Shown here in pieces: positions 22,057-47,373 of a stretch of DNA of 64,000 nt. The notes under the pieces were generated by a model that had not been told where the DNA came from, ran no database searches, and worked only from the letters and a program-made list of their open reading frames with translations. A program made the translations under genes and the position numbers. The stretch comes from Pseudomonadota bacterium (GTDB taxonomy: Bacteria; CALINM01), in the NCBI GenBank assembly GCA_026418415.1, contig JAOABK010000007.1, positions 1-64,000 of the forward strand. Reading direction: 5' to 3'. The stretch's first letter is position 1. Every line of letters starts with the position of its first letter.

Positions 22057-22121
22057 TAAAATTCTTAGTAAAAGTATATATATAAAATTTTTAAAAAATG
22101 TTATTTTTAATTACCTAAATT

Positions 22122-22943
22122 ATGGCTAACAAGTTCACTGTTACAATTTTATTAATTTTAATTCTTACAACTCCAATTTTTTCAGCACAAAATAAAACAA
22201 TCATATTAGCAACAACAACGAGTGTTCAGGATTCGGGACTTCTTGAAGTAATAATTCCTCTGTTTGAAAAAAAAACTGGATATTTTGTAAAAACAATAGC
22301 AGTCGGATCTGGACAGGCAATGGCCTTAGGAAAAAGGGGTGAGGCTGATCTTTTATTGGTTCATTCACCCGAAGAGGAAATAAAATTTATAAAGGAAGGC
22401 TACGGTATAAATAGGAAAAGCTTTATTTATAATGACTATTTACTTTTGGGACCAAAATCAAATCCAGCAAAGATAATCTATAATGAAAACATAGTAGAGG
22501 CATTTAAAAAAATTTCAAAAACAAAATCCCTATTTATCTCGCGAGGAGACAACTCAGGGACCCATATAAAAGAATTATATATATGGTCAAAAGCGGGTAT
22601 TAATCCTAATGGTGAAAGGTGGTATCAGGAAACTGGTAATGGTATGGGACAAACTTTAATAATAGCAGATGAAAAAGATGGATATATACTTTCTGACAGA
22701 GGAACATATTTAACTTTAAAAAGGAGGTTAAAGAATTTAGCAATTATTATAGATAAAGAAGAATCTCTGAAAAATGTATACTCCCTTATAGAAGTAAATC
22801 CCGATAAATTTAAGAATCTGAATAATAGGGGGGCAAAATTATTTATCGAATTCATGACAACATCAAAGGAAGTTAAAGATATTATAAAATCTTTTGGCAA
22901 AAAAGAATTTGGAGAACCAATATTTTACTTATTTTCTCAATAG
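22122..22943 (+). CDS. tupA: Tungstate ABC transporter substrate-binding protein TupA
   Basis: Signal peptide and the TupA signature ATTTSVQDSGLL. Confidence 0.7.
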   Translation: MANKFTVTILLILILTTPIFSAQNKTIILATTTSVQDSGLLEVIIPLFEKKTGYFVKTIAVGSGQAMALGKRGEADLLLVHSPEEEIKFIKEGYGINRKSFIYNDYLLLGPKSNPAKIIYNENIVEAFKKISKTKSLFISRGDNSGTHIKELYIWSKAGINPNGERWYQETGNGMGQTLIIADEKDGYILSDRGTYLTLKRRLKNLAIIIDKEESLKNVYSLIEVNPDKFKNLNNRGAKLFIEFMTTSKEVKDIIKSFGKKEFGEPIFYLFSQ

Positions 22944-22958
22944 CAAAGGAAATCTTTT

Positions 22959-23663
22959 ATGGATGTAATAATAGAATCATTATCTAAGGCTTTAAAACTA
23001 CTTTTAACTTTTGATAAAGAGACCTATGATGTCATAATACTATCTTTTAAAGTTTCTATATTATCATCATTAATTAGCGGTATAATAGGAATATCTCTCG
23101 CGTTTTTTTTATCAATTAAAGATTTCCCAGGAAAGAAAATCCTTTTATCCTTCATAAACACTGGTATGGCAATGCCCCCAGTAATAGCAGGTTTGTTAAT
23201 AACAATTCTGCTCTGGCGTAATGGAATTTTAGGCTCCTTTGAACTACTCTATACTCCCTATGCAATGATTATCGCACAGACTCTCCTTGCTACACCTATA
23301 ATTTTAGGAATCAGTGTCTCTGCCTTTCAGAGTTTTCCTGATAAATTTATACTACAATTATTGGGATTAGGCGCAAATAAAGTGCACCTTTTTTTAATTA
23401 TGTTAAAAGAATGTAAACTTTCAATTTTATCTGCAATTATGGCTGGCTTTGGAACTGTTATATCTGAAGTAGGGGCATCTTTAATGGTGGGTGGCAATAT
23501 TAAAGGATATACAAGAGTTCTAACCACTGCTACTATAACTGAAACATCTAAAGGCAATTTCGACCTTGCAATAGCATATGGCATTATTCTACTATTTATC
23601 ACTTTGACAATAAACCTAATTTTAACAAAAATTCAACAAACTTCGGTAAAAAGACATGGATAG
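22959..23663 (+). CDS. tupB: Tungstate ABC transporter permease TupB
   Basis: Permease with an EAA-like loop, encoded between tupA and tupC. Confidence 0.65.
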   Translation: MDVIIESLSKALKLLLTFDKETYDVIILSFKVSILSSLISGIIGISLAFFLSIKDFPGKKILLSFINTGMAMPPVIAGLLITILLWRNGILGSFELLYTPYAMIIAQTLLATPIILGISVSAFQSFPDKFILQLLGLGANKVHLFLIMLKECKLSILSAIMAGFGTVISEVGASLMVGGNIKGYTRVLTTATITETSKGNFDLAIAYGIILLFITLTINLILTKIQQTSVKRHG

Positions 23664-24741
23664 TATACTCAGAGTCCAAAACTTATATGTTAAAAAGTCC
23701 TCTAAAATAATAATAGACATACCTGATCTTTCTTTATCTGAAGGTACAATTACATCAATTATAGGTGAAAATGGTGCAGGAAAAACAACATTGATACTAA
23801 CCCTTGCGGGTCTTCTACGACCAACTAATGGAGAGATCTATTTTTATCAAAAGAAAATAGGAACAGAACTATCTTTAAAAAAATACAGACAGAATATCGC
23901 GATTGTATTTCAGGAAAATATGCTAATTAATGACACTGTATATGAAAATATAGCATTAGGACTTAAATTTCGTAAAATGAATAAACTTATAATCAAAGAA
24001 AAAGTTAAAAAGATGCTCGAAATATTTAAAATCTCCCATCTTAGAGATAGAAAGGCCCATACACTATCTGGCGGAGAAGCCAAAAGGGTTAGTATTGCAA
24101 GGGCTTTAGTATTAGAACCAGATATACTTTTTCTTGATGAGCCGTTCACCTCTTTAGATTCTATATCAAAAGAAGAAATAATATCTGACATGATAGAAAT
24201 TCTTAGAAAAAAAAAGGTTACCACTATACTCAGTACTCATGATAAGTTTGAGGCTTTTAGATTGTCTGATTTAATTATCGTAATGGAAAGCGGTAAAATA
24301 ATTCAAAAGGGCAATAAAGAGGATATAATAAAACATCCTGCAAATAGTTTTGTTGCCTCTTTTATAGGTGCAGAAAATATTTTAGAAGGAATAGTAATAG
24401 CAAAAAAAGACGGTGGTTTTATAGCAAAAGTCCATGATAAGCTTTTAGAATGTGTTGGTAGTTATGAGATAGGTGATAAAGTTTTACTTTGTATAAGACC
24501 TGAAAATATTTTCATATCAAAACATACCCTTGCAGAAGAAATAAGTACAAGAAACCTTTTTGAAGGGAAGATAAAAGAAATTATAAACTTTGGACATTTC
24601 TATAGAATAACAATAGATACTGGTTTCAACCTAATTGCCTATATTACAAAAACATCAATTGATAAATTATCTTTGAAGATTGGAGACGATGTAATCACTG
24701 GTTTCAAAGCAACATCTATACACACAATTTCTAAGGTTTAG
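23656..24741 (+). CDS. tupC: Tungstate/molybdate ABC transporter ATP-binding protein with C-terminal TOBE domain
   Basis: Walker A GENGAGKTT, signature LSGGEAKR, and a C-terminal extension of about 120 aa. Confidence 0.7.
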   Translation: MDSILRVQNLYVKKSSKIIIDIPDLSLSEGTITSIIGENGAGKTTLILTLAGLLRPTNGEIYFYQKKIGTELSLKKYRQNIAIVFQENMLINDTVYENIALGLKFRKMNKLIIKEKVKKMLEIFKISHLRDRKAHTLSGGEAKRVSIARALVLEPDILFLDEPFTSLDSISKEEIISDMIEILRKKKVTTILSTHDKFEAFRLSDLIIVMESGKIIQKGNKEDIIKHPANSFVASFIGAENILEGIVIAKKDGGFIAKVHDKLLECVGSYEIGDKVLLCIRPENIFISKHTLAEEISTRNLFEGKIKEIINFGHFYRITIDTGFNLIAYITKTSIDKLSLKIGDDVITGFKATSIHTISKV

Positions 24742-24745: not shown

Positions 24746-26164
24746 CTATTTCAAAAATCCAAACTTTTTCATTCTATATCTCATTGCATCAACCCCAATA
24801 TTTAACAATCTCGCTGCCTTTGATTGATTGCCTTTAGCTATTGTTAAGGCTTGTCTTATTAGTTCCTTTTCTACCTCTTCAATATCAATGCCCTCTTGGG
24901 GAATCCTTATTTCGAAACTTCCTGAAGCCATAGATCTATTTGAAGAAGCTATTATTTCAGCTGGTAATCTTTCTACCATTATCATTTCTTCATCTTCAAA
25001 AATCATGGCCCTCTCAATAACATTTCTAAGTTCCCTAATATTTCCAGGCCAATCATATTGCATTATCATTTTCATCGCTATTGGAGAGAATCCTTTAACA
25101 TTCTTTTTAAATTCACTATTGAAATACTTGATGAAATAATTAGCAAGTTCTACTATATCTTCTCTTCTCTCCCTTAAGGGTGGAATATAAATTGGCACAA
25201 CTTTTATTCTATAATAAAGATCTTCTCTAAATTTACCTTCTTGAACCAACTTCTTCAGTATCTTATTAGTTGCAGCAATTATCTGTACATCTACTGGGAT
25301 ATCGGTTAACCCACCAACCCTACGAACTTTTCTTTCTTCTAAAAATCTCAACATTTTCGCCTGTATGGTCATGGGCATGTCACCAATTTCATCTAAGAAT
25401 AAAGATCCACCATCAGCAAGCTCAATCAAGCCTTGTTTAGTCGATTTAGCATCAGTAAAAGCACCTTTTTCATACCCAAATAATTCACTTTCTAAGAGTG
25501 TCTCAGGAACAGATGCACAATTTATTGCAATAAATGGTCCTTCAGCTCTTTTGCCAGAGCCATGAATTGCTTTTGCAATTAGCTCTTTTCCAACACCACT
25601 TTCACCCTCAATTAACACAACCTTTACGTCTGCTTCTGCTACTCTTGTAATTAATTCTTTAATTTCTTTAATTGCTTTACTTGAACCTACTATTGCATCT
25701 AAGCTATACTTCTTTTCCCTTTCTTTTTTATAATAGTTAATTTCTTTGAGCTTTCTCGAATATTCTTCCGCCTTTTTAATGACCACTAACATCTCATCCA
25801 TTGAAAAGGGCTTATTAATATAATCAAAAGCGCCTAATTTCATTGCTTTAACAGCACTTTCTGCACTTCCATAAGCAGTTATTATTATTACTACTGTATC
25901 TGGAGACTTTTCTTTTATAAGTGCTAATAGATCGAGTCCTGTAATCTTTGGCAACATTAGATCCAAGAGAACAATATCAAATTGGGTATATTCGATAGCT
26001 TTTATAGCATCTTTTGAATTATTAACAACCGTAACATCATAATTATTTTTCTCAAGTTCTGTTTTTAGCATATCGCAAATCAGTTTTTCATCATCAACGA
26101 TCAAGACCTTATTCATTTTTTTGCTCCTTGCTGTGTTTGTCCCGGTGTAAAAATAAACTCCCAA
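24746..26164 (-). CDS. sigma54-dependent response regulator, PilR-like, orphan (no cognate kinase adjacent)
   Basis: REC domain, AAA+ domain with GESGVGKE and GAFTDA, and a C-terminal Fis-type HTH. It is the last gene of the pseudopilin/T2SS operon. Confidence 0.8.
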   Translation of the reverse strand: MGVYFYTGTNTARSKKMNKVLIVDDEKLICDMLKTELEKNNYDVTVVNNSKDAIKAIEYTQFDIVLLDLMLPKITGLDLLALIKEKSPDTVVIIITAYGSAESAVKAMKLGAFDYINKPFSMDEMLVVIKKAEEYSRKLKEINYYKKEREKKYSLDAIVGSSKAIKEIKELITRVAEADVKVVLIEGESGVGKELIAKAIHGSGKRAEGPFIAINCASVPETLLESELFGYEKGAFTDAKSTKQGLIELADGGSLFLDEIGDMPMTIQAKMLRFLEERKVRRVGGLTDIPVDVQIIAATNKILKKLVQEGKFREDLYYRIKVVPIYIPPLRERREDIVELANYFIKYFNSEFKKNVKGFSPIAMKMIMQYDWPGNIRELRNVIERAMIFEDEEMIMVERLPAEIIASSNRSMASGSFEIRIPQEGIDIEEVEKELIRQALTIAKGNQSKAARLLNIGVDAMRYRMKKFGFLK

Positions 26165-26730
26165 TCCCTATATCTCATTTTTCCTTCAAAATTTTTGTAA
26201 ATTTCTGGAAATCCTTTCTTTTTTAACGGTTCTTTTTCGCTTTTGCTTCTAACACCTTTAATTCTCATGCCTGTACCTGGCTGAAGTGAAGAAGAAGGTA
26301 CACCTTTGACATCACCTTCGGGGGTGACGGGAATCAGTTCCCACTCACCATCTAAAGTCATAGGGTCTTTATATAATTTTCTTAAATGCCTTTGAACAGA
26401 AAGACACCTTTTATCTTTTAAAAGATCTTCTAAGCTTGAAGGATACATATTTGGATGTCTGCAGTTTTTAGAATCATTGTAATAACTTTCTATTGCTTTT
26501 CTAATCTGGTCACCCCTGAAAAGAAGTTCCTCTTCTTTCTCTCTTTGTATAGCCTTACTCCAAATTTTACCCACAGCTGCCATACCTGCTCCAATGAATA
26601 ATAATGTTATCACAACAAAAGCAAGAGTAAAACCTTTTTCATTAACCTTCATAAATCTAACATTACCAATCACTATAGGGAGTTCCAGATAAACTAATTT
26701 CATTACTTCCACTCTTAACATCATAAACAC
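26113..26730 (-). CDS. Pseudopilin-like protein lacking Glu+5 (prepilin-type N-terminus KG/FTLAFVV)
   Basis: Prepilin-like hydrophobic N-terminus and a C-terminal region paralogous to the two upstream pseudopilins (R-K-A-I-x-x-Y-Y...SLEDL). Confidence 0.55.
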   Translation of the reverse strand: MFMMLRVEVMKLVYLELPIVIGNVRFMKVNEKGFTLAFVVITLLFIGAGMAAVGKIWSKAIQREKEEELLFRGDQIRKAIESYYNDSKNCRHPNMYPSSLEDLLKDKRCLSVQRHLRKLYKDPMTLDGEWELIPVTPEGDVKGVPSSSLQPGTGMRIKGVRSKSEKEPLKKKGFPEIYKNFEGKMRYRDWEFIFTPGQTQQGAKK

Positions 26731-27052
26731 CTGTTTCCTCTGGATTAGGTGGCGGAACTATAATCCAAGTGGTATTTGAATTAGTTATTGGATCTCTTGG
26801 TATAGACCTTAGATAACCCTTCTGAACTAAATCTTCTAAACTACCAGGATATGTACCGTTATCTGCATAGTATTGATCTATTGCACTTCTCATAGCAAAT
26901 AGATTCTCTTTCAAAACGGTCTCTCTTGCTCTTTTAACAGAATTCTTGTAGGTTGGCTGTGCGATAGTTAAAAGAATACCTATAATAGTTATTACTATTA
27001 ACAACTCTATTAAAGTAAATCCTCTATTACCATTCTTTGTAATAAGTTCCAT
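26663..27052 (-). CDS. GspG-like type II secretion major pseudopilin / type IV pilin-like protein
   Basis: Classical prepilin peptidase site G/FTLIELLIVITIIGIL, and a GspG-like C-terminal YL..IPRDP motif. Confidence 0.8.
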   Translation of the reverse strand: MELITKNGNRGFTLIELLIVITIIGILLTIAQPTYKNSVKRARETVLKENLFAMRSAIDQYYADNGTYPGSLEDLVQKGYLRSIPRDPITNSNTTWIIVPPPNPEETGVYDVKSGSNEISLSGTPYSDW

Positions 27053-27539
27053 CTAAGGCTTTCTCCTCACTTAAAGAGTACACATCATATACATCCTCGC
27101 CTTCTTGAGGACTGTCTGGATCGCTTGCATAGCTTCTTTTGCCCCATGTATCTTCGGGTTTTAAATTTGGGTCATTATTAAAAGGATCCCTTGGAATTCT
27201 CCTAAGGAAATATATTTTTTTACCAGTACCCTTTAGATCATCTACTCCCTCAACTAAAACATTTAAATTTGGTGGATACCCACTATCTGTTGCAGTACCA
27301 GGCTTAACTGGAAGGGTTTTTGCAATTTTGCCATATTGCTCGTAATAATCATCAATCGCTTTTCTAATCATTCGTAAATTATATCTCAATTCCATCTCCT
27401 TAACTCTTTTAACAGACATCCTTGCAACTGGAAATACTGCTGTTGCCAAAACTGCTAAAATTGCAACTGCAACAACAAGTTCTACTAAAGTAACTCCCCT
27501 TTTACTTATCATAAGACTACTGCACTTCCATAAAACCAT
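27027..27539 (-). CDS. Pseudopilin / type IV pilin-like protein (start probably at internal MISKRG/VTLVEL)
   Basis: Prepilin motif G/VTLVELVVAVAIL with Glu+5, and a C-terminal RRIPRDPFNNDP motif shared with its neighbours. Confidence 0.75.
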   Translation of the reverse strand: MVLWKCSSLMISKRGVTLVELVVAVAILAVLATAVFPVARMSVKRVKEMELRYNLRMIRKAIDDYYEQYGKIAKTLPVKPGTATDSGYPPNLNVLVEGVDDLKGTGKKIYFLRRIPRDPFNNDPNLKPEDTWGKRSYASDPDSPQEGEDVYDVYSLSEEKALDGTYYKEW

Positions 27540-29883
27540 TAACCGTTCTTACAGTATATTGTTTTCCATCCTTAGTTTTTACTCTACAGTTCTTAAGCAA
27601 AATCATTTCCATCCCTGGTGCTTTTCTTTTGCCTTTTATGTCCACAATGCCAATTGTGAAGGTTCCTGAAACTTCTTCGCTTAATTTAGCGTAAATACTA
27701 AAGCTTCCAGATTTTTCATCAAAGCTCCACTGATATACATCTCCCTCTTTCATGGGAGGTCTTGCTTCTCTAAATTTTATTGGTTCAAGAAATAGAGGAT
27801 TTATCTGACCAGAAACCTCAAACTCAACAATAGGTGGAATTTCTGAAAATGCAATTTCCACTTCTATCTCCTCTCCAACTCCTAATATTTCAGGTACAAT
27901 TGGAGCAACAAACACAATCTCATCCCTAAACAGATCTTCTGGTTTGATACCAACTAATTGTTCTTCTTTAACCTCCTGAACAGCTTTAATTTCTCGCTGG
28001 GGTACTATGCTCTGTTCCTTTTTTTCTTCCACCGGTTTTGGTCTTTCAATAACACCTTTACCCCTACCCTCAGCTGATGGTTCTGTTACAGACCTTAACA
28101 TGGGTTTTGAAGTCATTCTATCTTCAGTGCCAGACCAAATATTTGTTGCGGTCAATGGTGGTTGAACAACTCCTTTGGTAATATGTGGTGTGATAGAAAT
28201 AAAGATGTCTGACTGGTCGACCTTGTCTTCATAACTGCTAAAAAGTCTTCCAATAATTGGTATCTCACTAAGAAATATAATTCCAGATTTTGTTCTAGAG
28301 GTCCTATTCTGAATTAAACCACCAAGAACTGTAGTTTCTCCATCCTTTAATCTCAATATAGTTTTTGCATTTCTTGTTCCTATACGATATACAGTTGTTC
28401 CATTTGGGGTTCTATTTTCTGCAACAATATTGCTTACTTCAGCATCTATCTTAATCTCTACCTCATCATTTGAAAGAATCTTTGGCTCAGCATTGAACTT
28501 AACACCCACATCCACATATTGTACATTTTCTGAACGATTATCCACACCACTAACAGTAACTGTAATTACTGGTACTCTATCACCCACATGGACCTGTGAC
28601 TTTGCCCCATCGAGAGCTCTTAATTGTGGATTTGCTAATGTCTTAGTTACACCTGTCTGTTTTAGAAAATTTAGTGTAACTGTTGGCAGTGTAAACAATA
28701 CATTTCTCTCAAACATTGATTTTTCTAAATCCCTAATATTAACAAGGGTTGCATTAGTTCCTGTCAGAGAAGAGCTACTTGTAACAGACGTTGGAGGATT
28801 CCCTTTTGCAAACCCAGCCTGAATATTTAGAGGACTAAAATCTATACCCAGCTTCTCTAAATCATTTCTATTTACTTCAAGAAATTCTAAGTTTAAAACT
28901 ACTTCTGGTTTAGGTAAGTCATTTGCTTCAATAACCCTTTCTGCTATTTCTAAAGAATCAGCATCAGCTCTAATAACTATTGCATTTTGATCTTCATTAA
29001 CGAATATCTGTCTTGCCTCTATAAGGCTTCTTATTGTATTTATCATTTTTTTCGCATCAGAGTATTTGAGAAAAAAGGTTCTTATATAATACTCATCATA
29101 TTCTTTTCTTTTCTGTTTATTATCTGGATAAACTATAACATTTTTCGGATTGACAATCTTTACAGCTAACTTGTTTGAAAAAAGCAAAAGCTCAAGAGCT
29201 TGAACAAAAGTTGCATCTTCTATAAATATTGTAACCTTAGTATCTCTTATTGCTTCATCAAAAACAAAATTAATACCCGATAACTTAGAAAGAACTTCGA
29301 AAACATCCTTAATGCTTGCATCTTTAAACTTTAACGTTACTGGCTTTGAAGAATCAAAGGATAGTTCATACTCGAAACGTGATTTTTGATCCTGAGCAGA
29401 AAGCAAATCAAGCAATTCTTTTGCCTCTTTTGAATTTGGATCCAATCCATATGCTCTTTTTGCAGATTCATAGGCTTCTTTAAACTTGTTTAGAGCATAA
29501 AACTCTCTTGCTTTAGTAAGACTTTCCAAAGAGTCCTTTTTTCTCTTTACCTCTTGTAAAAAATTTAAAGCATTTTTGTAATTTGGATCTAAGACAAGGG
29601 TCATTTGAAACTCTTTTTCTGCCTCAGCAAAGTTATTCTCCTCCATAAATTTTATGCCCTTTTTAAAATGTTCTTTCGCAGAGGCCTCTTTTGCCCTAAG
29701 AAGCTTAATTCTATACTCAAAATTCTTTGGGGATTCATTCAGGGCTCTTTGATAATAAGCAATGGCTTCATCGTATTTGCCTTCTTCCATCAACTTTTCA
29801 GCCACATTGTAAGATTTACTAGCGCAGGCAGATATTAAAAATATCAAAAATAAAAGAAAAATTATTTTATCTTTTTTTTGCAT
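27517..29883 (-). CDS. Secretin (GspD/PilQ family) with N-terminal lipoprotein TPR domain and C-terminal extension
   Basis: Lipobox LISAC, TPR repeats from about residue 25 to 150, N0/secretin_N-like modules, a secretin core (LRLKDGETTVLGGL...IPIIGRLF), then about 230 extra residues. Confidence 0.8.
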   Translation of the reverse strand: MQKKDKIIFLLFLIFLISACASKSYNVAEKLMEEGKYDEAIAYYQRALNESPKNFEYRIKLLRAKEASAKEHFKKGIKFMEENNFAEAEKEFQMTLVLDPNYKNALNFLQEVKRKKDSLESLTKAREFYALNKFKEAYESAKRAYGLDPNSKEAKELLDLLSAQDQKSRFEYELSFDSSKPVTLKFKDASIKDVFEVLSKLSGINFVFDEAIRDTKVTIFIEDATFVQALELLLFSNKLAVKIVNPKNVIVYPDNKQKRKEYDEYYIRTFFLKYSDAKKMINTIRSLIEARQIFVNEDQNAIVIRADADSLEIAERVIEANDLPKPEVVLNLEFLEVNRNDLEKLGIDFSPLNIQAGFAKGNPPTSVTSSSSLTGTNATLVNIRDLEKSMFERNVLFTLPTVTLNFLKQTGVTKTLANPQLRALDGAKSQVHVGDRVPVITVTVSGVDNRSENVQYVDVGVKFNAEPKILSNDEVEIKIDAEVSNIVAENRTPNGTTVYRIGTRNAKTILRLKDGETTVLGGLIQNRTSRTKSGIIFLSEIPIIGRLFSSYEDKVDQSDIFISITPHITKGVVQPPLTATNIWSGTEDRMTSKPMLRSVTEPSAEGRGKGVIERPKPVEEKKEQSIVPQREIKAVQEVKEEQLVGIKPEDLFRDEIVFVAPIVPEILGVGEEIEVEIAFSEIPPIVEFEVSGQINPLFLEPIKFREARPPMKEGDVYQWSFDEKSGSFSIYAKLSEEVSGTFTIGIVDIKGKRKAPGMEMILLKNCRVKTKDGKQYTVRTVNGFMEVQ
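27597..27611 (-). promoter_or_regulatory. Candidate sigma54 -24/-12 element upstream of the pseudopilin genes (inside the 3' end of the secretin gene)
   Basis: The minus strand reads TGGAAA-TGATT-TTGCT, with GG and GC at the correct spacing. It lies about 60 bp upstream of the first pseudopilin start. Confidence 0.3.
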
Positions 29884-30448
29884 CTTTCACCTCTTTTTCT
29901 ACCGTTAAAATTCTTTTTGTACCCTTATCATCAACTAAAATTACATCATTTTGTTCAATGCTTGTAACTATATAGTTTGTATTAAATATTTTATCGCCTC
30001 TCTTAAAGGATCTAATATCCCTATCTTTCTTAAAAAAGGCAAATTCTTTGTTTTCTTTTTTTAGAATTCCCATTAGTGAAATATCTTTTAATTCATCAAT
30101 TACTGGCTCTTTTTCTATTACTTTAGGTTTTGGATCTACTGGTAGAGGCGGTAATGGTGGTGCTTGTATTGTTACAACTTTTTTTCTCTCTTCTTCAAGT
30201 TTTTTTTGCTCTAAATCTGGCCTCACCAATTCACCAAACAAATCCTTATTTGTTATTTTTAGAGAGTTTTCTGGATACCTAACATTCCTAATATCAACAC
30301 CCTTTTCCTTAGCAGTAAAATTGATAGGTTTTTCTTTAGTTAAACTACTTTGATTTCCCCTCATAATATTTCCATTATATTTAATAATGATAAAAATTAG
30401 TATCCAGAGACCAACAAGGGACAATAAAATTTTCTTCTTTTTGTCCAT
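29867..30448 (-). CDS. PilP/GspC-like periplasmic component with N-terminal membrane anchor
   Basis: N-terminal TM, a Pro-rich linker and a C-terminal beta-rich domain, in the operon position of a PilP or GspC component. Confidence 0.4.
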   Translation of the reverse strand: MDKKKKILLSLVGLWILIFIIIKYNGNIMRGNQSSLTKEKPINFTAKEKGVDIRNVRYPENSLKITNKDLFGELVRPDLEQKKLEEERKKVVTIQAPPLPPLPVDPKPKVIEKEPVIDELKDISLMGILKKENKEFAFFKKDRDIRSFKRGDKIFNTNYIVTSIEQNDVILVDDKGTKRILTVEKEVKDAKKR

Positions 30449-30948
30449 TAATTCTCTTCCTTCAAATATGTATGTATAAGTAGATTCGCAGAAACAAGGG
30501 GTGGTTTCTTTGTTAATTTAATACCATTAATCTCCACAAAATGTGAGCCTCTTTCAAGAGTATGTATATATTTTCTTATCCCTTCATATGTACCATCTAC
30601 AGTTATATTTAACATTACCTTTTGTAGTTTAACATCTTTTTTTTCTTCAAATGAGTAAGTAATGTTCATCAAATCAATTTTCGCAAAATATGTCTGTTCA
30701 AACAAATAGGATATTAATTTAGGAAAATCTTTCGATGTTCTTAGTCTTTTTTCAAATTCCCCAACTTCCTCTTTCATCCTATAAATGTATTCAAAACCTG
30801 ATAAACCTTCATTTTTTATCTTGTTTCTTAAAGCGCTATATTCACTAATTAGCCTGTCAAGTTGATTTTGTTTAGAGGGAAGAAAAACAAACCAAAAGAG
30901 AAGGTTTATCAAAAAAAATAGTATAAAAATAATGCCTTTTCTTTTCAA
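30448..30948 (-). CDS. PilO/GspM-like inner-membrane component
   Basis: Single N-terminal TM, coiled coil and periplasmic domain, about 165 aa, between PilN-like and PilP-like genes. Confidence 0.45.
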   Translation of the reverse strand: MKRKGIIFILFFLINLLFWFVFLPSKQNQLDRLISEYSALRNKIKNEGLSGFEYIYRMKEEVGEFEKRLRTSKDFPKLISYLFEQTYFAKIDLMNITYSFEEKKDVKLQKVMLNITVDGTYEGIRKYIHTLERGSHFVEINGIKLTKKPPLVSANLLIHTYLKEEN

Positions 30949-31499
30949 ATCAACTCCCCTTTAATTTCAAAATTCCCAATAATTAACTTTTTATCAGTCC
31001 CTTTCTGCATAGTCTGCCTTGTTAGAGTCACTTTCTTAAAAATTTCAACACTTTGAAGTTGACTCAAATAATTAACGACCGCTTCAGGATGAAGCGTTTC
31101 ACCAGTTATTATGAAGGATTTTCTGGAAATATCAAAATCCAAGCTTATTAGTTTTATATTATTCGGTGTCTTTTCTTCAATAATATTTAAAAAAGCTGTT
31201 TGGGTTAACTTAGCTCCTTTAAATTCATTATAGAACTTTATTTTATTCCTCAATACTACTTCTTCTCCTTCAGATATGATTCTTTTTCTCTCTTCTTTAG
31301 CCTTCTCTAACTTTATATTTATTTCTGATATCTCTTTCCTGACCTTATCAATTTCTAAATTAATACCATAAAACCTTATTACTCCATAAACAAACAAACA
31401 AGCAAGCATAATAATAACAATCCAATAAGCTCTACCAAATAGACTCTTCTGTATTTCCTTTTTTCTGTCATAATTAGAAAAGTTTATTCTATATCTCAA
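30945..31499 (-). CDS. PilN/GspL-periplasmic-like inner-membrane component
   Basis: Short cytoplasmic N-terminus, TM, coiled coil and periplasmic domain, with an overlapping start and stop. Confidence 0.45.
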   Translation of the reverse strand: MRYRINFSNYDRKKEIQKSLFGRAYWIVIIMLACLFVYGVIRFYGINLEIDKVRKEISEINIKLEKAKEERKRIISEGEEVVLRNKIKFYNEFKGAKLTQTAFLNIIEEKTPNNIKLISLDFDISRKSFIITGETLHPEAVVNYLSQLQSVEIFKKVTLTRQTMQKGTDKKLIIGNFEIKGELI

Positions 31500-32356
31500 C
31501 TTATCACTCCTGCGGCAATAACAAATCTTCTTAATAGATTTTCTTGTATGTTTGTCTGTATTTTCAAATCCGACAACAAAATTGGATTACTTTTTTCTGG
31601 TAAATACTTTCCAATATCTTCTCTGCCAACCTCATCAAAATACAATATTCTTTCTGGTGCTATCAAATCTTCATTTCTTCTTATTGTGGATAAAAAACTA
31701 TAAAGCTCAGCCTCTATCCTCTCTATTGGAAGTGTTTGATCTAACTCACGAATATATCTTGGTGTAGCATCAGCAAAAACCATCATAGAAAAACCTTTTT
31801 CCTTTAACCACAAAATTAAGCAATTTTCAGTAAGTAATGGTTCGATAGTGTTTAGAATTGCAATAGATGGAGGTACTATTAAAGGTGATACGAAACCACT
31901 TTCTCTTAAACATCTTTCTAGTTCGATTATAAAGGTTTTAAAAGTTATAGCAATCAGCAAAACTGTCTGTTCCTTCATTTTTGAAATTATATCAATTCTC
32001 ATCTCTATCTGTTCTTTGGGAATTGGAATGATTTTACCTATCTTCCACATAACAAAATCATAAAGTTCATCTCTATTTTTTGGAATATCTTCTACATTAA
32101 GTGTGTAGTACCAGGTTATAGAATAGGGTAGTATTATGTTTAATTCCCTTCTTTTCTCCGATGTCTTTTTGCTTAACAAATTAAGAAGTTTAGTGATATA
32201 CTCACATTCAATTGATAATTCTGTACCCTTCCTTTGAAATAACTGAATCCCTTCGTAACCAAACCTTTCAAATCCCGAGAGCGTTATAATTCCCTGTTTT
32301 TTTTCAATATTTACATATGAAAACCCTTCCTTTTCAAGAAGCAATACACTATTCAT
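31496..32356 (-). CDS. PilM/GspL-cytoplasmic-like (actin-fold-like) component
   Basis: Soluble 286-aa protein encoded immediately downstream of the GspE-like gene. The assignment is by position. Confidence 0.4.
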   Translation of the reverse strand: MNSVLLLEKEGFSYVNIEKKQGIITLSGFERFGYEGIQLFQRKGTELSIECEYITKLLNLLSKKTSEKRRELNIILPYSITWYYTLNVEDIPKNRDELYDFVMWKIGKIIPIPKEQIEMRIDIISKMKEQTVLLIAITFKTFIIELERCLRESGFVSPLIVPPSIAILNTIEPLLTENCLILWLKEKGFSMMVFADATPRYIRELDQTLPIERIEAELYSFLSTIRRNEDLIAPERILYFDEVGREDIGKYLPEKSNPILLSDLKIQTNIQENLLRRFVIAAGVIS

Positions 32357-34068
32357 CAGACCTCTGCAAATGTAACTCTATTTATTTCTTTAATTGTTGT
32401 AATACCTTCTAAAACCTTCTTTTCTGCAACCTCTCTCAGAAATATAGTACCCAACTCTTTTGCTTTTTTCTTTAAAATATGAATTGGGGCTTTATCAATA
32501 ATTAGTTCTTTCATATCATCATTTAGGTTCAAAACTTCTCCTATTGCAATTCTCCCTTTATACCCTGTTCCAGAACATTCGCTACAGCCAGCACCCTCAT
32601 GGAAATCAAAATTTTCATATTTTTCAGCATCAAATCCCATCACGGTGAGATAATCTTTGCTATATTTTACTTTTTTCTTGCAGTTATTACAAATTACTCT
32701 TATTAACCTTTGTGCTAATACACAATTTAGAGAAGAAACAAAGTTATATGGGCTTATGCCCATGTTTAAGAATCGTGCAATAACATCAAATATATTATTA
32801 GCATGAACTGTTGTTAACACTAAATGACCAGTTAGGGCTGATTGAATAGCTATCTGGGCTGTTTCAGGATCTCTAATTTCTCCAACCATTATCTTATCGG
32901 GATCATGTCTTAAAATAGAACGCAATCCCCGTGCAAAAGTAAGTCCCTTTTTCTCATTTACTGGAATCTGGACAACACCTTTTAATTGATATTCAACAGG
33001 ATCCTCAATTGTGATTATTTTATCCTCTCCACTATTAATTTCTGATAATGCTGCATATAACGTCGTTGTTTTACCTGAACCAGTAGGACCAGTTACAAGT
33101 ATCATACCATAGGGTTCTCTGATTTTCTTTTTCATTACACCAATCACATTCTCATCAAATCCCAAGGATTCTAATTTTAAATTTTTCAAATCTATAATTA
33201 TACTCTCTTTATCAAGTATTCTTATAACAGCATCTTCACCAAATATAGTAGGTAAAATGGAAACACGAAAGTCAATCGATCTACCCTTTATTCTTAACTT
33301 GAACCTTCCATCTTGTGGGATTCTTTGCTCAGCAATATCAAGGTCTGACATAACCTTTATTCTTGAAATTATATGATTTTGATATTTTAAATCTATTGGT
33401 CCAACCGCCTTTTGAAGTATACCATCAATTCTAAATCGTATATAAACCCCATCTTGAGAAGATTCAATATGAATATCACTTGCTCTTTTTTGCAAGGCAT
33501 CATATATGGCGGTATCAACGAGCTTCACTATGGGACTTGTTTCTTCATCTGATAATTTTTCAAGTGTAAGAACTTCCTCTCCCTCTTCAGTTTCTTTAAC
33601 CAATAGAACTCTTATATCTTCTGTTACTTCTTCAAGAACCCGTGAAGTGCTTTCTAATTTCTTTAATATTTTTTCAATTCTTGAAGGGGGAGCACATATA
33701 ACTTCAATTTCTTTACCTGTAAGTAGATACAACTCATCCCTCGCAAACAAATTAGTTGGATCTAAAAAGGCAAATTCAAGTTTATCAGACTTTTCATCCA
33801 CAAAAACGCACTTATTTCTTTGCATAATCTCCAAAGTTATATTTTCTGGAATTTTTTCTGGAATTACGTAATCGGCAAGGCTCATATATTGCATTTTAAG
33901 CTGATCTGCTAAAGTCTGATAGAAATCTTCTTCTGTAACATATCCCTTTCTTATTAAAACAGTTCCAATCCTTTCTTTAGAGTTTAATGCTTCATTTAAG
34001 GCCAACTTTAACTGGTCCTCAGTAACCAGTTTTTTTTCTAATAATAATTCACCTATATATTTTCTCAT
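32356..34068 (-). CDS. gspE: Type II secretion / type IV pilus assembly ATPase (GspE/PilB family)
   Basis: N-terminal T2SSE_N domain, Walker A GPTGSGKTT, Asp and His boxes, and a C-terminal CxxC...CxxC zinc motif. Confidence 0.85.
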   Translation of the reverse strand: MRKYIGELLLEKKLVTEDQLKLALNEALNSKERIGTVLIRKGYVTEEDFYQTLADQLKMQYMSLADYVIPEKIPENITLEIMQRNKCVFVDEKSDKLEFAFLDPTNLFARDELYLLTGKEIEVICAPPSRIEKILKKLESTSRVLEEVTEDIRVLLVKETEEGEEVLTLEKLSDEETSPIVKLVDTAIYDALQKRASDIHIESSQDGVYIRFRIDGILQKAVGPIDLKYQNHIISRIKVMSDLDIAEQRIPQDGRFKLRIKGRSIDFRVSILPTIFGEDAVIRILDKESIIIDLKNLKLESLGFDENVIGVMKKKIREPYGMILVTGPTGSGKTTTLYAALSEINSGEDKIITIEDPVEYQLKGVVQIPVNEKKGLTFARGLRSILRHDPDKIMVGEIRDPETAQIAIQSALTGHLVLTTVHANNIFDVIARFLNMGISPYNFVSSLNCVLAQRLIRVICNNCKKKVKYSKDYLTVMGFDAEKYENFDFHEGAGCSECSGTGYKGRIAIGEVLNLNDDMKELIIDKAPIHILKKKAKELGTIFLREVAEKKVLEGITTIKEINRVTFAEV

Positions 34069-35264
34069 CCTGCAACCGTCCCTGCTAAATTAAATATCGG
34101 TAAATACATTGCTATAACAATTATAGCAACAATAACTCCCATAACAATCATCAAGGCTGGCTCTATAATATTTGAAACAATAGTTAGAGTATCAACTACA
34201 AGGTTATCATAATATTCTGCAACCTCATCAAGCATCTCCCATAAAGCCCCTGTACCTTCACCAGCTTTAATTAATCTAAGGCTAATAGGCGGAAAAAGAC
34301 CTGTATTTTCTAAAGATGAAGACAATGAATTTCCTTCTTCTACCATCTTAATTACTTTTTTTAATTCCTCTGCAAAAAACTCATTGGTTGTAACTCCCGC
34401 AACAGTTTTTAAGGCAACTACAAGGGGAATACCACCTTTTAAAATAGCAGAAAGGGTTCTTGCAAAGTTTGATATTAAATAATTTTTATATATCTGTGAG
34501 ACATAAGGTATATTAAGTTTAATTTTGTCAATGTTAAATCTACCTTTGTATGTTTTTGAATAACTTCTAAAAGCAAAAATACCACCAATTATAGCAAGAA
34601 CAATAAATACAGCCATTTTCTGAAATACTTCTGTTAAAAACAATAGAGCCCTTGTGATTAAGGGCAACTGCACATGTGAATCAAGGTAAATCTTACTAAA
34701 ATTAGGAATCACATATGTAAACATAAAGACCACCGCTAAGACTATTACACAGAGAATTATTGCTGGATAAACAGAAGAGCTAACCATCTTCCTTCTTAAT
34801 TGGTCAACCTTTTTCATATAAACTTGATAATCTCTCAATCTTTCAGCTAAATTACCACCCCTTTCTCCTGCTTTTATATTCGCAATATAAAGCATAGGAA
34901 AAACATCTGGAAATTTCTCCAGTGCTTCTGAAAGAGACAATCCCTGTTCTACATCATTTTTTATCTGACTTAAAACTTTTGGGAATCCTTTTTTTATTGT
35001 CATTTTTTCGAGAATTATTTCAAGCGCTCTTACCACTGGCTGTCCTGATTTGATAAGAACATAAAGCTCTTGATTGAAAGTAAGAAATTCTCTAATATTC
35101 AGTTTCTTCCTTCTACCTGATGCAGTGAATACTTCTTCGATAGAAAGTAGGAGATATCCATCTCGTTCAGCTAAAGCTCTCGTCTCTTCTATTGATTCTG
35201 CAAAGTATTTAATAAATGTTACTTTACCTGATTTATCTACTACTTTGCAGTTAAAATAGGGCAT
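34065..35264 (-). CDS. gspF: Platform protein GspF/PilC
   Basis: Duplicated T2SSF domains with three TM segments, about 400 aa. Confidence 0.8.
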   Translation of the reverse strand: MPYFNCKVVDKSGKVTFIKYFAESIEETRALAERDGYLLLSIEEVFTASGRRKKLNIREFLTFNQELYVLIKSGQPVVRALEIILEKMTIKKGFPKVLSQIKNDVEQGLSLSEALEKFPDVFPMLYIANIKAGERGGNLAERLRDYQVYMKKVDQLRRKMVSSSVYPAIILCVIVLAVVFMFTYVIPNFSKIYLDSHVQLPLITRALLFLTEVFQKMAVFIVLAIIGGIFAFRSYSKTYKGRFNIDKIKLNIPYVSQIYKNYLISNFARTLSAILKGGIPLVVALKTVAGVTTNEFFAEELKKVIKMVEEGNSLSSSLENTGLFPPISLRLIKAGEGTGALWEMLDEVAEYYDNLVVDTLTIVSNIIEPALMIVMGVIVAIIVIAMYLPIFNLAGTVAG

Positions 35265-35314
35265 ATTCTTTCTTTAGATTAAAAAATTTATTTGAAGCAA
35301 ATGTCTTCATAAAA

Positions 35315-36409
35315 TTATTTACTACTACCATACCTTTTCGGGCTGTGATCAACATTGTGACATTTTAAATAACAACTACCAGAAAATACACCATCCGATG
35401 TAAATTCAAGCTTATTTGTAACTGAATCTCTTTGTACATAATCGGGATTAAAATCAATTAAAAATTTATACTTTATAGAGCCGTGAGAATTATGACAGGT
35501 ACTACAACTTGTTCCTTTCCAATTCCTTGCTTTTACCCCCTCTATATGTTCCCTATGATATTTAAAACTCTGATTTCCTAAAATACTCTCTTTCCTGTGA
35601 CATTTATAACACAAATCATACTTTGGAATCATCACTTCTTCTTTTTTCGTATAGGGCAAAAGGAGTAAAAAATCGTTTTCTGAACCATGAACCCCAGATG
35701 CTCTATTTGGATTTCTCTCATCTGAGCCATGGCAATCGGAACACTTGATTTTAGACTCATAATTTAAGTTTTTCTCTAAACTGGGCAAGTAATTGTTCTT
35801 ACCTACTTCCACAACTGGATGGAAGGAAGGATTTTTTGGATCAAATTCTTTTAGCTTATCCTTTTGGTAGGGTGGTTTATTGTTAGCAGGTCCGTGACAT
35901 TTGAAACAAACTTCATATTCTTCTTCTGCAAACTGTTTATACTTACCATCAATTCCAATACCAGAAGCCCCTAAAAAAGGCATTTCAGGTATAGAATAGT
36001 GGGGATGATGACAGTCTATACACTCTGCATGCCTTGGAGTTTTTGGATCTATTATAGGGTACTTTTCCAATAAATTTAGCACCCCCTGCTTTTCTACTGG
36101 ATGTCTATAGGGTTTAGAAAAATCCTCTTCCACACTTTTTGCTTCCGTAGTTCTGATTTTTAACTTCTTTTGATTTATAATTATCCTATTATTTTTGCTG
36201 TGGCAAAGATAACATTGTTTCTCTTCATCACCGCCAACGTAGCCAGTGGAAGCATGGCAGGTTTTGCAACCATTGGGGTTATATTTTGTCTGATAATGAG
36301 TTGGAACTCTTGAAGATACAAGAATTATTTTTTCTTCTCTTGTTAATGCAAAAAGGTTCTTTATAATTAACATGGATATTATCAAAAATAAAATATTAAA
36401 TTTTCTCAT
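35315..36409 (-). CDS. Octaheme c-type cytochrome (7 CxxCH + 1 CxxxCH)
   Basis: Signal peptide. Motifs CKTCH, CYLCH, CIDCH, CFKCH, CSDCH, CYKCH, CSTCH and CYLKCH, several followed by HxxH distal-His patterns. Confidence 0.85.
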   Translation of the reverse strand: MRKFNILFLIISMLIIKNLFALTREEKIILVSSRVPTHYQTKYNPNGCKTCHASTGYVGGDEEKQCYLCHSKNNRIIINQKKLKIRTTEAKSVEEDFSKPYRHPVEKQGVLNLLEKYPIIDPKTPRHAECIDCHHPHYSIPEMPFLGASGIGIDGKYKQFAEEEYEVCFKCHGPANNKPPYQKDKLKEFDPKNPSFHPVVEVGKNNYLPSLEKNLNYESKIKCSDCHGSDERNPNRASGVHGSENDFLLLLPYTKKEEVMIPKYDLCYKCHRKESILGNQSFKYHREHIEGVKARNWKGTSCSTCHNSHGSIKYKFLIDFNPDYVQRDSVTNKLEFTSDGVFSGSCYLKCHNVDHSPKRYGSSK

Positions 36410-36418
36410 AACTAACCC

Positions 36419-37240
36419 TTATTTTATAACAGGTGGTTGTGGTTGATGACAATGATAACACAAGCCCCCCTTCATTGGTCCTGCATGACTACAAGAATAA
36501 TTATTAAAATTAACGGGTTCCCTTACAAAATATCCATGGGTATTATCATGGGCATCATGACAGGTTGTACACTGCATGCCTGTCCTGTTAGGATTTCTCG
36601 TACCATCTTTATGGGCATATATAGTTGGTCTTAAGGGATAATATACTTCTGATGAATTTGGGCCATATTGATCGATCTCATATTTACCAGAAACTGTCCT
36701 TGAAGGTCTTAGCTTCCAAGAATTAACCTGCGTAGCAGCAATTAAAGAGTCAGTAACAGCGATTGATATGGGATGCTTTAAATGGGTATTGGCACCGGGA
36801 GTTTTTAAGTCAGTGCCTAAATTAAGTACACTCGTTGCAACCAACCTGCCCTGAGGATCAACATCCGTACCCGTAACAGCAATATTTCCCTTCAAAGTAC
36901 CACCAATTGCAACCGTCCCATCATGACATGAAAGACATTGCTTCGAACCTCCATCAGGTTGATTTCTTGGACTTTTTAGAGTTGCTGAACTATATATTCT
37001 ATATGTGGCGGAAGAAAAGCGATGACCCCACAATGGCTCTACAGAGGCACTATGAGCCAGATGACAGAACTTACAAATCTCTGATTCATTAACTGCTCTT
37101 ACTCTAACGTTATTTCTAACACTTGGTGCCCAACTTGCTAAGTTATGAGGACTCCTTACTATGGGTGAATTTATATCAATAGCCATTAAAATAACTGGCA
37201 TTGTGATTAATACTATTATAATAACCAGAGCCTTTTTCAA
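36419..37240 (-). CDS. Tetraheme c-type cytochrome
   Basis: Signal peptide and motifs CKFCH, CLSCH, CTTCH and CYHCH. Confidence 0.85.
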   Translation of the reverse strand: MKKALVIIIVLITMPVILMAIDINSPIVRSPHNLASWAPSVRNNVRVRAVNESEICKFCHLAHSASVEPLWGHRFSSATYRIYSSATLKSPRNQPDGGSKQCLSCHDGTVAIGGTLKGNIAVTGTDVDPQGRLVATSVLNLGTDLKTPGANTHLKHPISIAVTDSLIAATQVNSWKLRPSRTVSGKYEIDQYGPNSSEVYYPLRPTIYAHKDGTRNPNRTGMQCTTCHDAHDNTHGYFVREPVNFNNYSCSHAGPMKGGLCYHCHQPQPPVIK

Positions 37241-38289
37241 TTTAAGCTCCCAATATATCTTAATATTTGGACTCTTTTGTTCAATGTATCAGCCACATAT
37301 ATATAATTTCTTTCATCACAAAAAATCCCAGAAGCTAAGTTAAACTGCCCTGGCAAATTGCCATCTACCCCAAATGCCATTAAAAATCTATCATTTTTAT
37401 CATAAATTTGTATACTACCCTGAAGACTATCTACAACATATATATGACCAAAAGTATCTACACAAACACCCTTAGGTCTTTCTAAATAGCCATCTCCTTT
37501 GCCCATTTTGCCAATTTTACCTAAAAACTTACCATCTTCACTAAAAAATTGTACCCTAAAATTCATACTATCTGTTACATAAAAATTGCCATCCCTGTCA
37601 ACAAAAATGTGAGTTGGATAGTTAAACTCACCATTTTCCTCACCTAATCTACCAATAGTTTTAAGTAAAATAAAATTTTTATCAAAAATTTTCACCCTAT
37701 GGTTGATTGAATCTACAACATAAAACCTTTTATTCTTTTTATTGAAAGCAATCCCACAGGGCCTCCACGGTGAGTACTCTAATCCATAAATTTTGTTTGG
37801 CTTACCATTAGGATTATAGACAACTATCCTCTCCTTTTCAGGATCACACACATAAATATTGCCCTCATCGTCTGCAGTTACTGAAGTTGGATAATACAAA
37901 ATATCTCCCGCTGGTGTTAACTGCAAAAAACTTGTCTTTCCCTTCTCAATATCCATAACAACTACAGAAAAGAGCCCTTGTTCTACAACAAAAATCTTTC
38001 CTCCATTTTTATAAACACTATAGGGCCTAAAAAATGAATTAATTTCCTGTACTTCTTCCCCTAAAAGCCATTTTACAATCTTAGATACCTTTGTTTCCTC
38101 AACTACCTTACTTGTATCAAAAGGAGAAGTTATAACTTTCACTAATTCTATTCTTGGCTTATTAGGTGGAGCTGGCCATACAAGGCTATAATCTTTTTCA
38201 TAAAATTTTTCTGGATTAACTATTCCATTTGCAGAACAAGAAAAAAAGAGAGTATTAAAAAGAAGTATTAAATAGATCTTTTTTTGCAT
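37237..38289 (-). CDS. NHL-repeat six-bladed beta-propeller lipoprotein
   Basis: Lipobox LFFSCSA, then repeated YV.D..N.R.. blocks (FYVVDSINHRVKIFD, FYVTDSMNFRVQFF, IYVVDSLQGSIQIYD, IYVADTLNKRVQIL) typical of NHL repeats. Confidence 0.8.
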   Translation of the reverse strand: MQKKIYLILLFNTLFFSCSANGIVNPEKFYEKDYSLVWPAPPNKPRIELVKVITSPFDTSKVVEETKVSKIVKWLLGEEVQEINSFFRPYSVYKNGGKIFVVEQGLFSVVVMDIEKGKTSFLQLTPAGDILYYPTSVTADDEGNIYVCDPEKERIVVYNPNGKPNKIYGLEYSPWRPCGIAFNKKNKRFYVVDSINHRVKIFDKNFILLKTIGRLGEENGEFNYPTHIFVDRDGNFYVTDSMNFRVQFFSEDGKFLGKIGKMGKGDGYLERPKGVCVDTFGHIYVVDSLQGSIQIYDKNDRFLMAFGVDGNLPGQFNLASGIFCDERNYIYVADTLNKRVQILRYIGSLN

Positions 38290-46960: not shown

Positions 46961-47373
46961 GAGCTATGAGAAAGGTTCTGATTGCTAAATACATGTCTCG
47001 ATGTATGGGATGCATGTCCTGCATGTTTGCCTGTGCAAGACGTGTAAGAAAGAGCATATCTGTTGCTAAATCTGCAATCAGAATAAAAACGAAGGGTGGA
47101 TATTCAAGTGGGAACATGGTAGCGGATCACTGTCTTGGGTGTGAAGAACCACCCTGTATCCCCTTTTGTCCTACTGGTGCTTTAGTCAAAAGAAAAAACG
47201 GTGGAATTATATTGAAAGCTGATTTATGCAATGGATGTAAAAAATGTATAGAAGGGTGTCCAGTAAAGGCAATTTTCTGGGATGAAGAAAAAAAATTACC
47301 CATCTTTTGTATTCACTGTGGTAACTGTGTCAGTTTTTGCCCACACAACTGTTTAGAGATAGGGGAGTTATAA
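46951..47373 (+). CDS. Poly-[4Fe-4S] ferredoxin-like electron-transfer subunit (AorA-like)
   Basis: Four Cys clusters of the CxxCxxCxxxC(P) type. Confidence 0.75.
   Translation: MLLRAMRKVLIAKYMSRCMGCMSCMFACARRVRKSISVAKSAIRIKTKGGYSSGNMVADHCLGCEEPPCIPFCPTGALVKRKNGGIILKADLCNGCKKCIEGCPVKAIFWDEEKKLPIFCIHCGNCVSFCPHNCLEIGEL

Follow-up and report, generated by a model that had tools for sequence, protein, structure and literature searches.

Gene content and layout of the cluster

We examined a 64-kb stretch of DNA (hereafter, the window: positions 1 to 64,000 of contig JAOABK010000007.1, assembly GCA_026418415.1) from an uncultured Pseudomonadota bacterium, in which 14 consecutive minus-strand open reading frames (ORFs) at 24746-38289 bring together multiheme cytochromes and a machine resembling a type II secretion system (T2SS). 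The first three genes, which we call the triad, encode a β-propeller protein, a tetraheme cytochrome c and an octaheme cytochrome c; the next ten encode a secretion machine of the Pul type; and the last encodes a sigma54 response regulator (Table 1). The gene content, order and operon-like packing given in the initial annotation of this DNA were recovered by ORF listing with translation and by Pfam and NCBIfam searches. Adjacent ORFs overlap by 1-52 nt as listed, and the sole gaps are of 9 nt between the two cytochrome genes and of 50 nt between the octaheme gene and gspF; the propeller gene lies directly 5′ of the tetraheme gene and overlaps it by 4 nt. For three genes, the likely start is later than that of the longest ORF: pseudopilin 1 at about 27512 (MISKRG/VTLVE), pseudopilin 3 at about 26652 (MKVNEKG/FTLAF) and the regulator at about 26116 (MNKVLIVDDE).

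The GC content is about 32% throughout. Both flanks consist of plus-strand genes unrelated to the cluster: an ABC transporter of the molybdate/tungstate type on one side and, on the other, a histidine operon together with a murA-like gene, which is divergent and lies upstream of the propeller gene. No convincing terminator was found within the operon, and the counts of terminator-like and promoter-like motifs were about those of shuffled controls, so that the single-operon reading is drawn from gene packing and conserved order and not from signals.

Table 1. Genes of the cluster, from first to last, with the matches that identify them and their identity to the related locus L085, from a contig carrying Pelotalea (Geobacter) chapellei proteins
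Gene product	Position	Strand	Basis of assignment	Identity to L085
NHL six-bladed beta-propeller, probable lipoprotein, first triad gene	37237-38289	-	Pfam NHL E 6e-24; DUF5128 6-bladed propeller; lipobox-like N-terminus ...LFFSC	31%
OmcE-family tetraheme cytochrome c, 273 aa, signal peptide, 4 CXXCH	36419-37240	-	OmcE homology	30%
Octaheme cytochrome c, 364 aa, 7 CXXCH + one CX3CH, MtrA-like heme wire	35315-36409	-		39%
GspF/PulF platform	34065-35264	-	Pfam T2SSF E 1e-54; TIGR02120 GspF 291 bits, below cut-off 424	40% (P. chapellei orthologue)
GspE/PulE assembly ATPase, N-terminal MshEN domain binding cyclic di-GMP (c-di-GMP)	32356-34068	-	T2SSE E 2e-130; MshEN E 6e-15	57% (P. chapellei PulE)
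PilM/PulM-like cytoplasmic assembly protein, 286 aa	31496-32356	-	No Pfam match; positional orthologue of PilM_2-matching genes in L085, L086, L088, L089	23% (tblastn E 6e-4)
PilN/PulN-like	30945-31499	-	Pfam PilN E 1e-5	
PilO/GspM/PulO-like	30448-30948	-	Pfam PilO E 5.5e-5; T2SSM_b E 7e-4	
PilP/PulP-like	29867-30448	-	Weak Pfam PilP match E 0.028; position of GSU1779 pulP	34% (over its C-terminal part)
PulQ, 788-aa lipoprotein: TPR, STN/N0, Secretin_N, secretin, linker, C-terminal cohesin-like domain	27517-29883	-	Pfam Secretin E 3e-39, TPR_1/2, STN, Secretin_N; lipobox LISAC	38% (residues 18-633)
Pseudopilin 1, GspG-like	27027-27539	-	N_methyl E 1e-6	53%
Pseudopilin 2, GspG-like	26663-27052	-	N_methyl E 4e-10; T2SSG E 7.5e-4; canonical G/FTLIE	45%
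Pseudopilin 3, position 5 Phe not Glu	26113-26730	-	No Pfam match; tblastn similarity to pseudopilins 1 and 2	
Response_reg / sigma54 activator / Fis-type HTH regulator	24746-26164	-	Response_reg, Sigma54_activat E 1.5e-69, HTH_8	

The two cytochromes

The tetraheme cytochrome by itself, compared with PDB sequences by phmmer, matched the OmcE filament of Geobacter sulfurreducens (7TFS, E 2.3e-14) and 9YUQ (E 1.7e-5), and a family profile built from 114 homologues matched residues 9-231 of the 232 of 7TFS at E 1.5e-43 and 9YUQ at E 1.7e-29; the latter entry is presumably the D. soudanensis OmcE of the preprint by Petersen et al. Homologues of the tetraheme form two groups, a close clade at 45-88% identity, the upper value being that of the best match in the protein collection, and a distant, very large one at no more than 41%. 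Three CXXCH motifs are invariant among the 114 sequences and the fourth (C261, C264, H265) is kept in at least 90% of them, while exactly four further histidines, H32, H63, H156 and H231, are invariant or nearly so, aligning with KHDL, CHTPH, DHP and CHKVH of OmcE. The combination of four CXXCH motifs and four histidines is the signature of OmcE homologues across phyla (Petersen et al., bioRxiv 10.1101/2025.10.22.684050), and the tetraheme from the window fits it. In OmcE and OmcS filaments one distal histidine is supplied by the neighbouring subunit, according to a 2025 review of Geobacter cytochromes, and the ligand set required for such inter-subunit ligation is present here. Judged by its sequence, the protein is a true homologue of the OmcE nanowire subunit, and the earlier guess to that effect is borne out by the single-sequence as well as the profile matches to 7TFS.

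The octaheme cytochrome has an eighth heme site of the form CYLKCH (C-x3-CH), and all eight sites are invariant in 117 homologues. Its fold is MtrA-like; it fails the TIGR03508 cut-off for the MtrA/DmsE decaheme family and carries eight hemes, not ten CXXCH motifs. Apart from short heme-motif matches to NrfH, neither OmcZ nor any other multiheme protein of solved structure gave a sequence match. Thus, of the two likenesses that the initial annotation had drawn from heme counts, that of the four-heme protein to OmcE extends to full-length homology, but that of the eight-heme protein to OmcZ was rejected, there being no homology to OmcZ beyond the shared count.

The matches to NrfH raise the question of whether both cytochromes could be subunits of periplasmic enzymes of the NrfB/NrfH/NapC type that lie beside an unrelated secretion system by chance. 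The partial match of the octaheme profile to NrfH (E 3e-5) covers two short heme-motif stretches and is at the level of motifs only, for which reason an NrfH/NrfB identity is disfavoured; moreover, the homology of the tetraheme to OmcE spans the full length, NrfA or another catalytic partner is not encoded nearby, and synteny is conserved across lineages (see below). We consider this reading of the cytochromes highly improbable.

In four related loci, the octaheme gene and pulF are separated by a gene for a small tetraheme cytochrome of 119-146 aa with three CXXCH and one CX3CH (L001, 11996-12355; L003, 11971-12354; L086, 11123-11563; L089, 11089-11529). It is absent from the window, which has the 50-nt gap at that position.

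The secretion machine

The genes following the triad conform neither to a classical Gsp system nor to a type IVa pilus. The classical Gsp core, consisting of secretin, GspE and GspF, gives strong Pfam matches, but all its NCBIfam equivalog scores fall short of their cut-offs, no match to GspC or GspL was found, there are three pseudopilins instead of the five GspG-K, and the alignment proteins are of the PilM/N/O/P type. On the pilus side, the ATPase stays below the PilB as well as the GspE equivalog cut-off (PilB 576.8 bits vs 675.65), the secretin scores 134 against a PilQ cut-off of 284, the PilC cut-off is likewise missed, and neither PilT nor a PilA major pilin was identified in the cluster. 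The pseudopilins are GspG-like, with a T2SSG match and an ...IPxDP... motif, and all three are small. Pseudopilin 1 is 49-70% identical to its orthologues and has a conserved C-terminus, DVYDVYS..E..A.DG..YK[DE]W, and homologues of pseudopilin 3 come after pseudopilin 2 in many Pul-type loci.

The initial annotation had remarked on the absence of PilT and of a prepilin peptidase, and this holds for the cluster: tblastn revealed no GspE/PilT paralogue elsewhere in the 64-kb window, and no prepilin peptidase was found in the cluster or among the 41 other window ORFs scanned with Pfam, the approximately 12 unscanned ones belonging mainly to ABC-transporter and histidine operons. The peptidase is presumably encoded elsewhere in the genome.

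A machine of this composition might also assemble a true extracellular type IV-like fibre of pseudopilins serving adhesion or biofilm formation, with the cytochromes decorating or feeding it. The PilM/N/O/P-type alignment proteins, the fact that the best score of the ATPase is that to PilB, and the c-di-GMP-binding MshEN domain, which is typical of MSHA-type pilus ATPases, would fit such a fibre, but the small GspG-like pseudopilins, the lack of PilT, the missed PilB, PilQ and PilC cut-offs and the action of the Geobacter orthologue as a secretion system (see below) do not, and we regard it as improbable.

The secretin ends in a domain of about 130 aa (27517-27950) that has no Pfam match but is a homologue, by hhalign (probability 86%, E 5e-6), of the C-terminal region annotated as Cohesin in Geobacter-type PulQ. 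A cohesin-like module is, to our knowledge, unusual on a secretin, and could tether a partner. The domain is beta-rich and is preceded by a long Pro/Glu/Lys-rich linker.

The N-terminus of PulE contains the c-di-GMP motif NF053729 at 58.3 bits, above the cut-off of 38. The window also encodes two diguanylate cyclases, at 2292-3950 (-) and 50411-51505 (+), one with GGDEF and two CXXCH motifs in a predicted periplasmic sensor region and the other of GAF-GGDEF type; together with the MshEN domain of PulE, they raise the possibility of redox-sensed c-di-GMP control of the machine.

Conservation of gene order in relatives

The order from propeller to pseudopilins recurs in three contigs of the close clade (L001, L003 and L005), in which the tetraheme is 45-55% identical and the flanks differ from one another, with gltB in one and a pst operon in another. 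A search with the octaheme further yielded Desulfuromonadia-type loci L085-L089, four of which (L086-L089) were picked solely as long contigs, and all five of the long-contig homologues so retrieved have the Pul-type architecture. L085, which carries proteins identical to P. chapellei entries, reads NHL, tetraheme, octaheme, T2SSF, MshEN-T2SSE, PilM_2, PilN, PilO, a PilP-sized protein, TPR/STN/Secretin/Cohesin and pseudopilins, and is collinear with the window at 23-57% identity over 11 of the 14 genes. In L086-L088 the cluster is followed by ftsE/ftsX, and in all four of L086-L089 it is preceded by a GT2 gene, accompanied in two by a SurA-like peptidyl-prolyl isomerase (PPIase). Conservation of synteny, proposed earlier as a check, is therefore found in relatives with different flanking genes.

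Correspondence with the Geobacter pul/oxpG locus

In the literature on G. sulfurreducens, locus tags are assigned to ftsX (GSU1774), pulG (GSU1777), pulQ (GSU1778), pulP (GSU1779), PulE (GSU1783) and pulF (GSU1784), and GSU1785, GSU1786 and GSU1787 are given as c-type cytochromes. The gene order of L086 (ftsX, ftsE, pseudopilin, a 171-aa gene, secretin, PulP, O, N, M, PulE, PulF, small tetraheme, octaheme, OmcE-like tetraheme) reproduces eight of these nine anchors without offset, the order of the tags being that in the papers and not a sequence comparison. The ninth anchor, pulG, falls on the 171-aa gene, which has no Pfam match and is taken as a pseudopilin from its position; the small tetraheme of the relatives is, again by position, the presumed equivalent of GSU1785. 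No G. sulfurreducens entries occur among the top 120 matches listed. From the locus tags we infer that the cluster in the window is the orthologue of the Geobacter pul/oxpG cluster together with its adjacent cytochromes (GSU1776/7-1787).

The Geobacter system, which has the pseudopilins PulG, OxpG and TklG, has been described as a type II secretion system of an "atypical" kind. It is needed for the multicopper protein OmpB to be secreted and for insoluble oxides of Fe(III) and Mn(IV) to be reduced (Mehta 2006, via PMC3543383 and PMC10599522), and electrode biofilms are enriched in PulQ and PulE (PMC6013743). Given this long-annotated locus, a T2SS-like machine beside multiheme cytochromes is not unprecedented, and what the window adds is a new lineage in which a cluster of this known Geobacter type occurs. 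In the literature searched, we found no recognition of one of the Pul-adjacent cytochromes as a member of the OmcE nanowire family, and no test of these cytochromes as Pul cargo; the secretion models that we found discussed in the 2025 review of Geobacter cytochromes are all based on pilins or porins, and the review allows that further uncharacterised nanowires may exist. Hence the initial suggestion that such an operon had not been characterised needs to be divided: the architecture is that of Geobacter pul/oxpG, with a published mutant phenotype and OmpB as its substrate, but OmcE membership and a role as cargo are unreported in the literature that we searched.

Resemblance to the Geobacter and P. 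chapellei Pul loci extends to the shared order (NHL, tetraheme, octaheme, PulF, MshEN-PulE, PulM/N/O/P, TPR-STN-secretin-cohesin-like, GspG-like pseudopilins) and to the absence of both PilT and peptidase from the cluster. The operon in the window, however, ends in a sigma54 response regulator, whereas Geobacter-type loci have ftsEX after the pseudopilins; it lacks the small tetraheme of L001, L003, L086 and L089, as well as the upstream GT2 and the PPIase that is sometimes present; and it comes from an uncultured lineage with 32% GC.

Proposed export of cytochromes, compared with known routes

We favour, at a probability of roughly one half, the reading that a single operon joins the cytochrome triad to a Pul-type machine, each of them a widespread module, with the sigma54 regulator last, and that the machine exports cytochrome. 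The parts, their homologies and their conserved linkage are the observed portion of this mechanism. Both cytochromes and the lipoprotein would be exported by Sec, the cytochromes acquiring heme in the periplasm. PulE, with c-di-GMP as a possible gate, would drive assembly of a short GspG-like pseudopilus on PulF and the MNOP set, and the pseudopilus would push folded redox proteins through the secretin, a self-piloting TPR lipoprotein that would form the exit in the outer membrane. The OmcE-like tetraheme, which we infer to be a Pul cargo, would end on the cell surface, where it might be polymerised head-to-tail via one of the four conserved distal histidines, while the MtrA-like octaheme and the propeller lipoprotein would remain in the envelope, the one feeding electrons and the other serving as anchor or chaperone. 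A fuller version, in which these parts make up a complete barrel-independent route for OmcE-type nanowires, with a c-di-GMP-gated pseudopilus, a self-piloting secretin, a cohesin-like tail and propeller anchoring the filament, and the octaheme wiring it to the periplasm, seems to us unlikely.

Comparison with other export routes brings out both precedents and differences. In Shewanella, surface display of MtrC and OmcA needs a T2SS, but the gsp genes there are not in one operon with the cytochromes, and the cluster in the window has no MtrB-like porin or MtrC-like decaheme, its octaheme carrying eight hemes, not ten. For OmcS and OmcZ, Gu et al. reportedly proposed in 2021 a model of export by a PilA-N/PilA-C pseudopilus, in which a type IV filament that does not retract likewise acts as the piston that drives out nanowire cytochromes; the machine in the window is, however, Pul and not a Pil-type type IVa pilus, its pilins are GspG-like and not PilA-N/C, and the cytochrome genes are linked to it. 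The canonical OmcE cluster of Desulfuromonadia comprises two multiheme cytochromes, two beta-propeller lipoproteins, OmcE and a large outer-membrane beta-barrel (Petersen et al. 2025, bioRxiv 10.1101/2025.10.22.684050). With it the window shares a tetraheme of the OmcE family in which every heme ligand is present, together with a neighbouring propeller lipoprotein and multiheme cytochrome, but it has a single propeller gene and, in place of a barrel-like gene, the secretin machine.

Triad and Pul machine as separable modules

Several observations weigh against cytochrome export by the Pul machine, and most of them concern the independence of the two modules. A scan of a genome collection found the propeller, OmcE-like and octaheme genes in that order in 75 of 80 loci, from Planctomycetota, Verrucomicrobiota, Nitrospirota, Bacteroidota, Gammaproteobacteria and others, yet T2SS genes lay within 10 kb of the triad only in L005 and, partly, in L050. 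In most of these loci, the propeller gene is preceded by a gene for a 386-631-aa protein without a Pfam family, which is taken as an outer-membrane barrel, the large beta-barrel of the canonical OmcE cluster; in the two loci scanned with Pfam, L008 and L050, there are further genes for a SurA-like PPIase, a larger multiheme cytochrome and a second propeller. Since the triad is mostly found without a T2SS and with this presumed barrel, it needs no secretin. Conversely, among 80 Pul-type loci obtained in a metagenome scan with the well-conserved pseudopilin 1, all 11 examined with usable sequence had no triad and no multiheme cytochrome upstream of pulF, which in two of them is directly abutted by GT2. 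With each module often found apart from the other, a machine private to the cytochromes, as the initial annotation had it, is at most a supposition. In a rough PulE tree, triad and non-triad loci are intermixed within the Geobacter-type clade, and trees of the tetraheme and of the propeller recovered no Pul-linked clade, although their distances are saturated and these two trees are thus uninformative. The sole experimentally identified substrate of the Geobacter system, OmpB, is a non-cytochrome, and in the 2006 study by Mehta the ompB mutant is said to copy the oxpG phenotype. Furthermore, GSU1786 was placed among periplasmic cytochromes in a survey of Desulfuromonadia cytochromes. Finally, a heme-free monomer model of the tetraheme (pLDDT 70.3) gave no significant Foldseek match, and a monomer cannot speak to filament formation.

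These observations can be accommodated if the two modules are merely co-located and co-regulated, the cytochromes not being cargo: Pul would then export other proteins, such as an OmpB-like multicopper oxidase or adhesins, and the triad would constitute an electron-transfer module of its own in the periplasm or outer membrane. Such an arrangement is the main rival to cytochrome export, and it would suit the known substrate in Geobacter, the existence of Pul machines without cytochromes and of triads without Pul, the periplasmic listing of GSU1786 and the intermixing in the PulE tree; we rate it as somewhat less likely than export. Two distant lineages retain the linkage, in which reading frames overlap and the flanking genes differ. 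No OmpB-like gene was seen in the window, and the Pfam matches of those window ORFs that were scanned include no multicopper oxidase. The Pul-linked loci L001, L003 and L085-L089 have no barrel-like gene, and three barrel-like proteins from related loci gave no tblastn match in the 64-kb window, which would leave the secretin as the only obvious outer-membrane partner of the triad.

The combination of triad and Pul thus coincides with the absence of the barrel-like gene. In the PulE tree, the clade of the window forms a separate, all-triad branch, and the octahemes of Pul-linked loci constitute one split in a neighbour-joining tree, with moderate support (bootstrap 32/50). Taken together, the distributions and trees of the two modules indicate that their combination is lineage-restricted but either old or recurrent.

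One locus may place both kinds of outer-membrane partner next to a single triad. In L050, from a metagenome-assembled genome of an uncultured Thermoanaerobaculia, positions 7-16538 encode a cytochrome with nine doubled-CXXCH domains, an NHL protein, a SurA-like PPIase, a 575-aa barrel-like protein, a second NHL protein, an OmcE-like tetraheme and an octaheme, and within about 2-8 kb there follow a pair of extracytoplasmic function (ECF) sigma and anti-sigma factors, a Secretin_N protein, GspF, GspE and a PilM-like gene, where the contig ends.

Implications for nanowire secretion

The route by which nanowires leave the cell is contested, a pilus- or T2SS-like piston being set against a porin-mounted pathway (2025 review and 2025 preprint). 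In at least two distant lineages, the genes of a secretin/pseudopilus machine are tightly linked to those of an OmcE-family subunit, its propeller lipoprotein and an MtrA-like heme wire, and the same triad is linked elsewhere to a presumed barrel protein; this natural swap makes the debate over nanowire secretion experimentally testable in G. sulfurreducens, and the cluster may re-interpret the oxpG phenotype of 2006. If the barrel-independent route were true, Geobacter Pul/OxpG would be a dedicated machine for nanowire secretion, and GSU1787-type proteins would represent a fourth, overlooked nanowire family, extending from Desulfuromonadia to the low-GC lineage of the window. If the cytochromes are not cargo, the finding is that of a new lineage with a known Geobacter-type cluster.

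Regulators, glycosylation genes and other features of the window

The sigma54 regulator of the operon has no adjacent kinase. No sigma54 -24/-12 site was found in the 198-bp region 5′ of the propeller gene, and a promoter candidate at 27611-27597, within the end of pulQ, was rejected, as it is not kept in L001 or L003. A second sigma54 response regulator, 44% identical to that of the operon, is encoded at 11922-15463 (-) and is paired with a dCache/HAMP histidine kinase.

OmcE of G. sulfurreducens is reportedly glycosylated. The window contains a GT2 gene at 49129-49860 (+), 11 kb from the cluster, whose product is 59% identical to the GT2 encoded directly 5′ of the propeller gene in Geobacter-type Pul loci, and a TMEM260-like protein O-mannosyltransferase gene at 60441-62012 (-); the two may be a protein-glycosylation pair.

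At 46951-49129 (+), 21481-24741 (+) and 51900-53820 (+), we noted an aldehyde:ferredoxin oxidoreductase with a 4Fe-4S partner, the ABC transporter of tungstate/molybdate type, a protein of the rubrerythrin family and an ORF that looks by eye like a desulfoferrodoxin, which suggest that the organism is strictly anaerobic and probably uses tungsten. A 647-aa ORF at 62053-63996 (-) belongs to no Pfam family and has an N-terminal run of GNGNGN repeats, and a single tRNA gene, tRNA-Leu(GAG), is located at 55756-55838.

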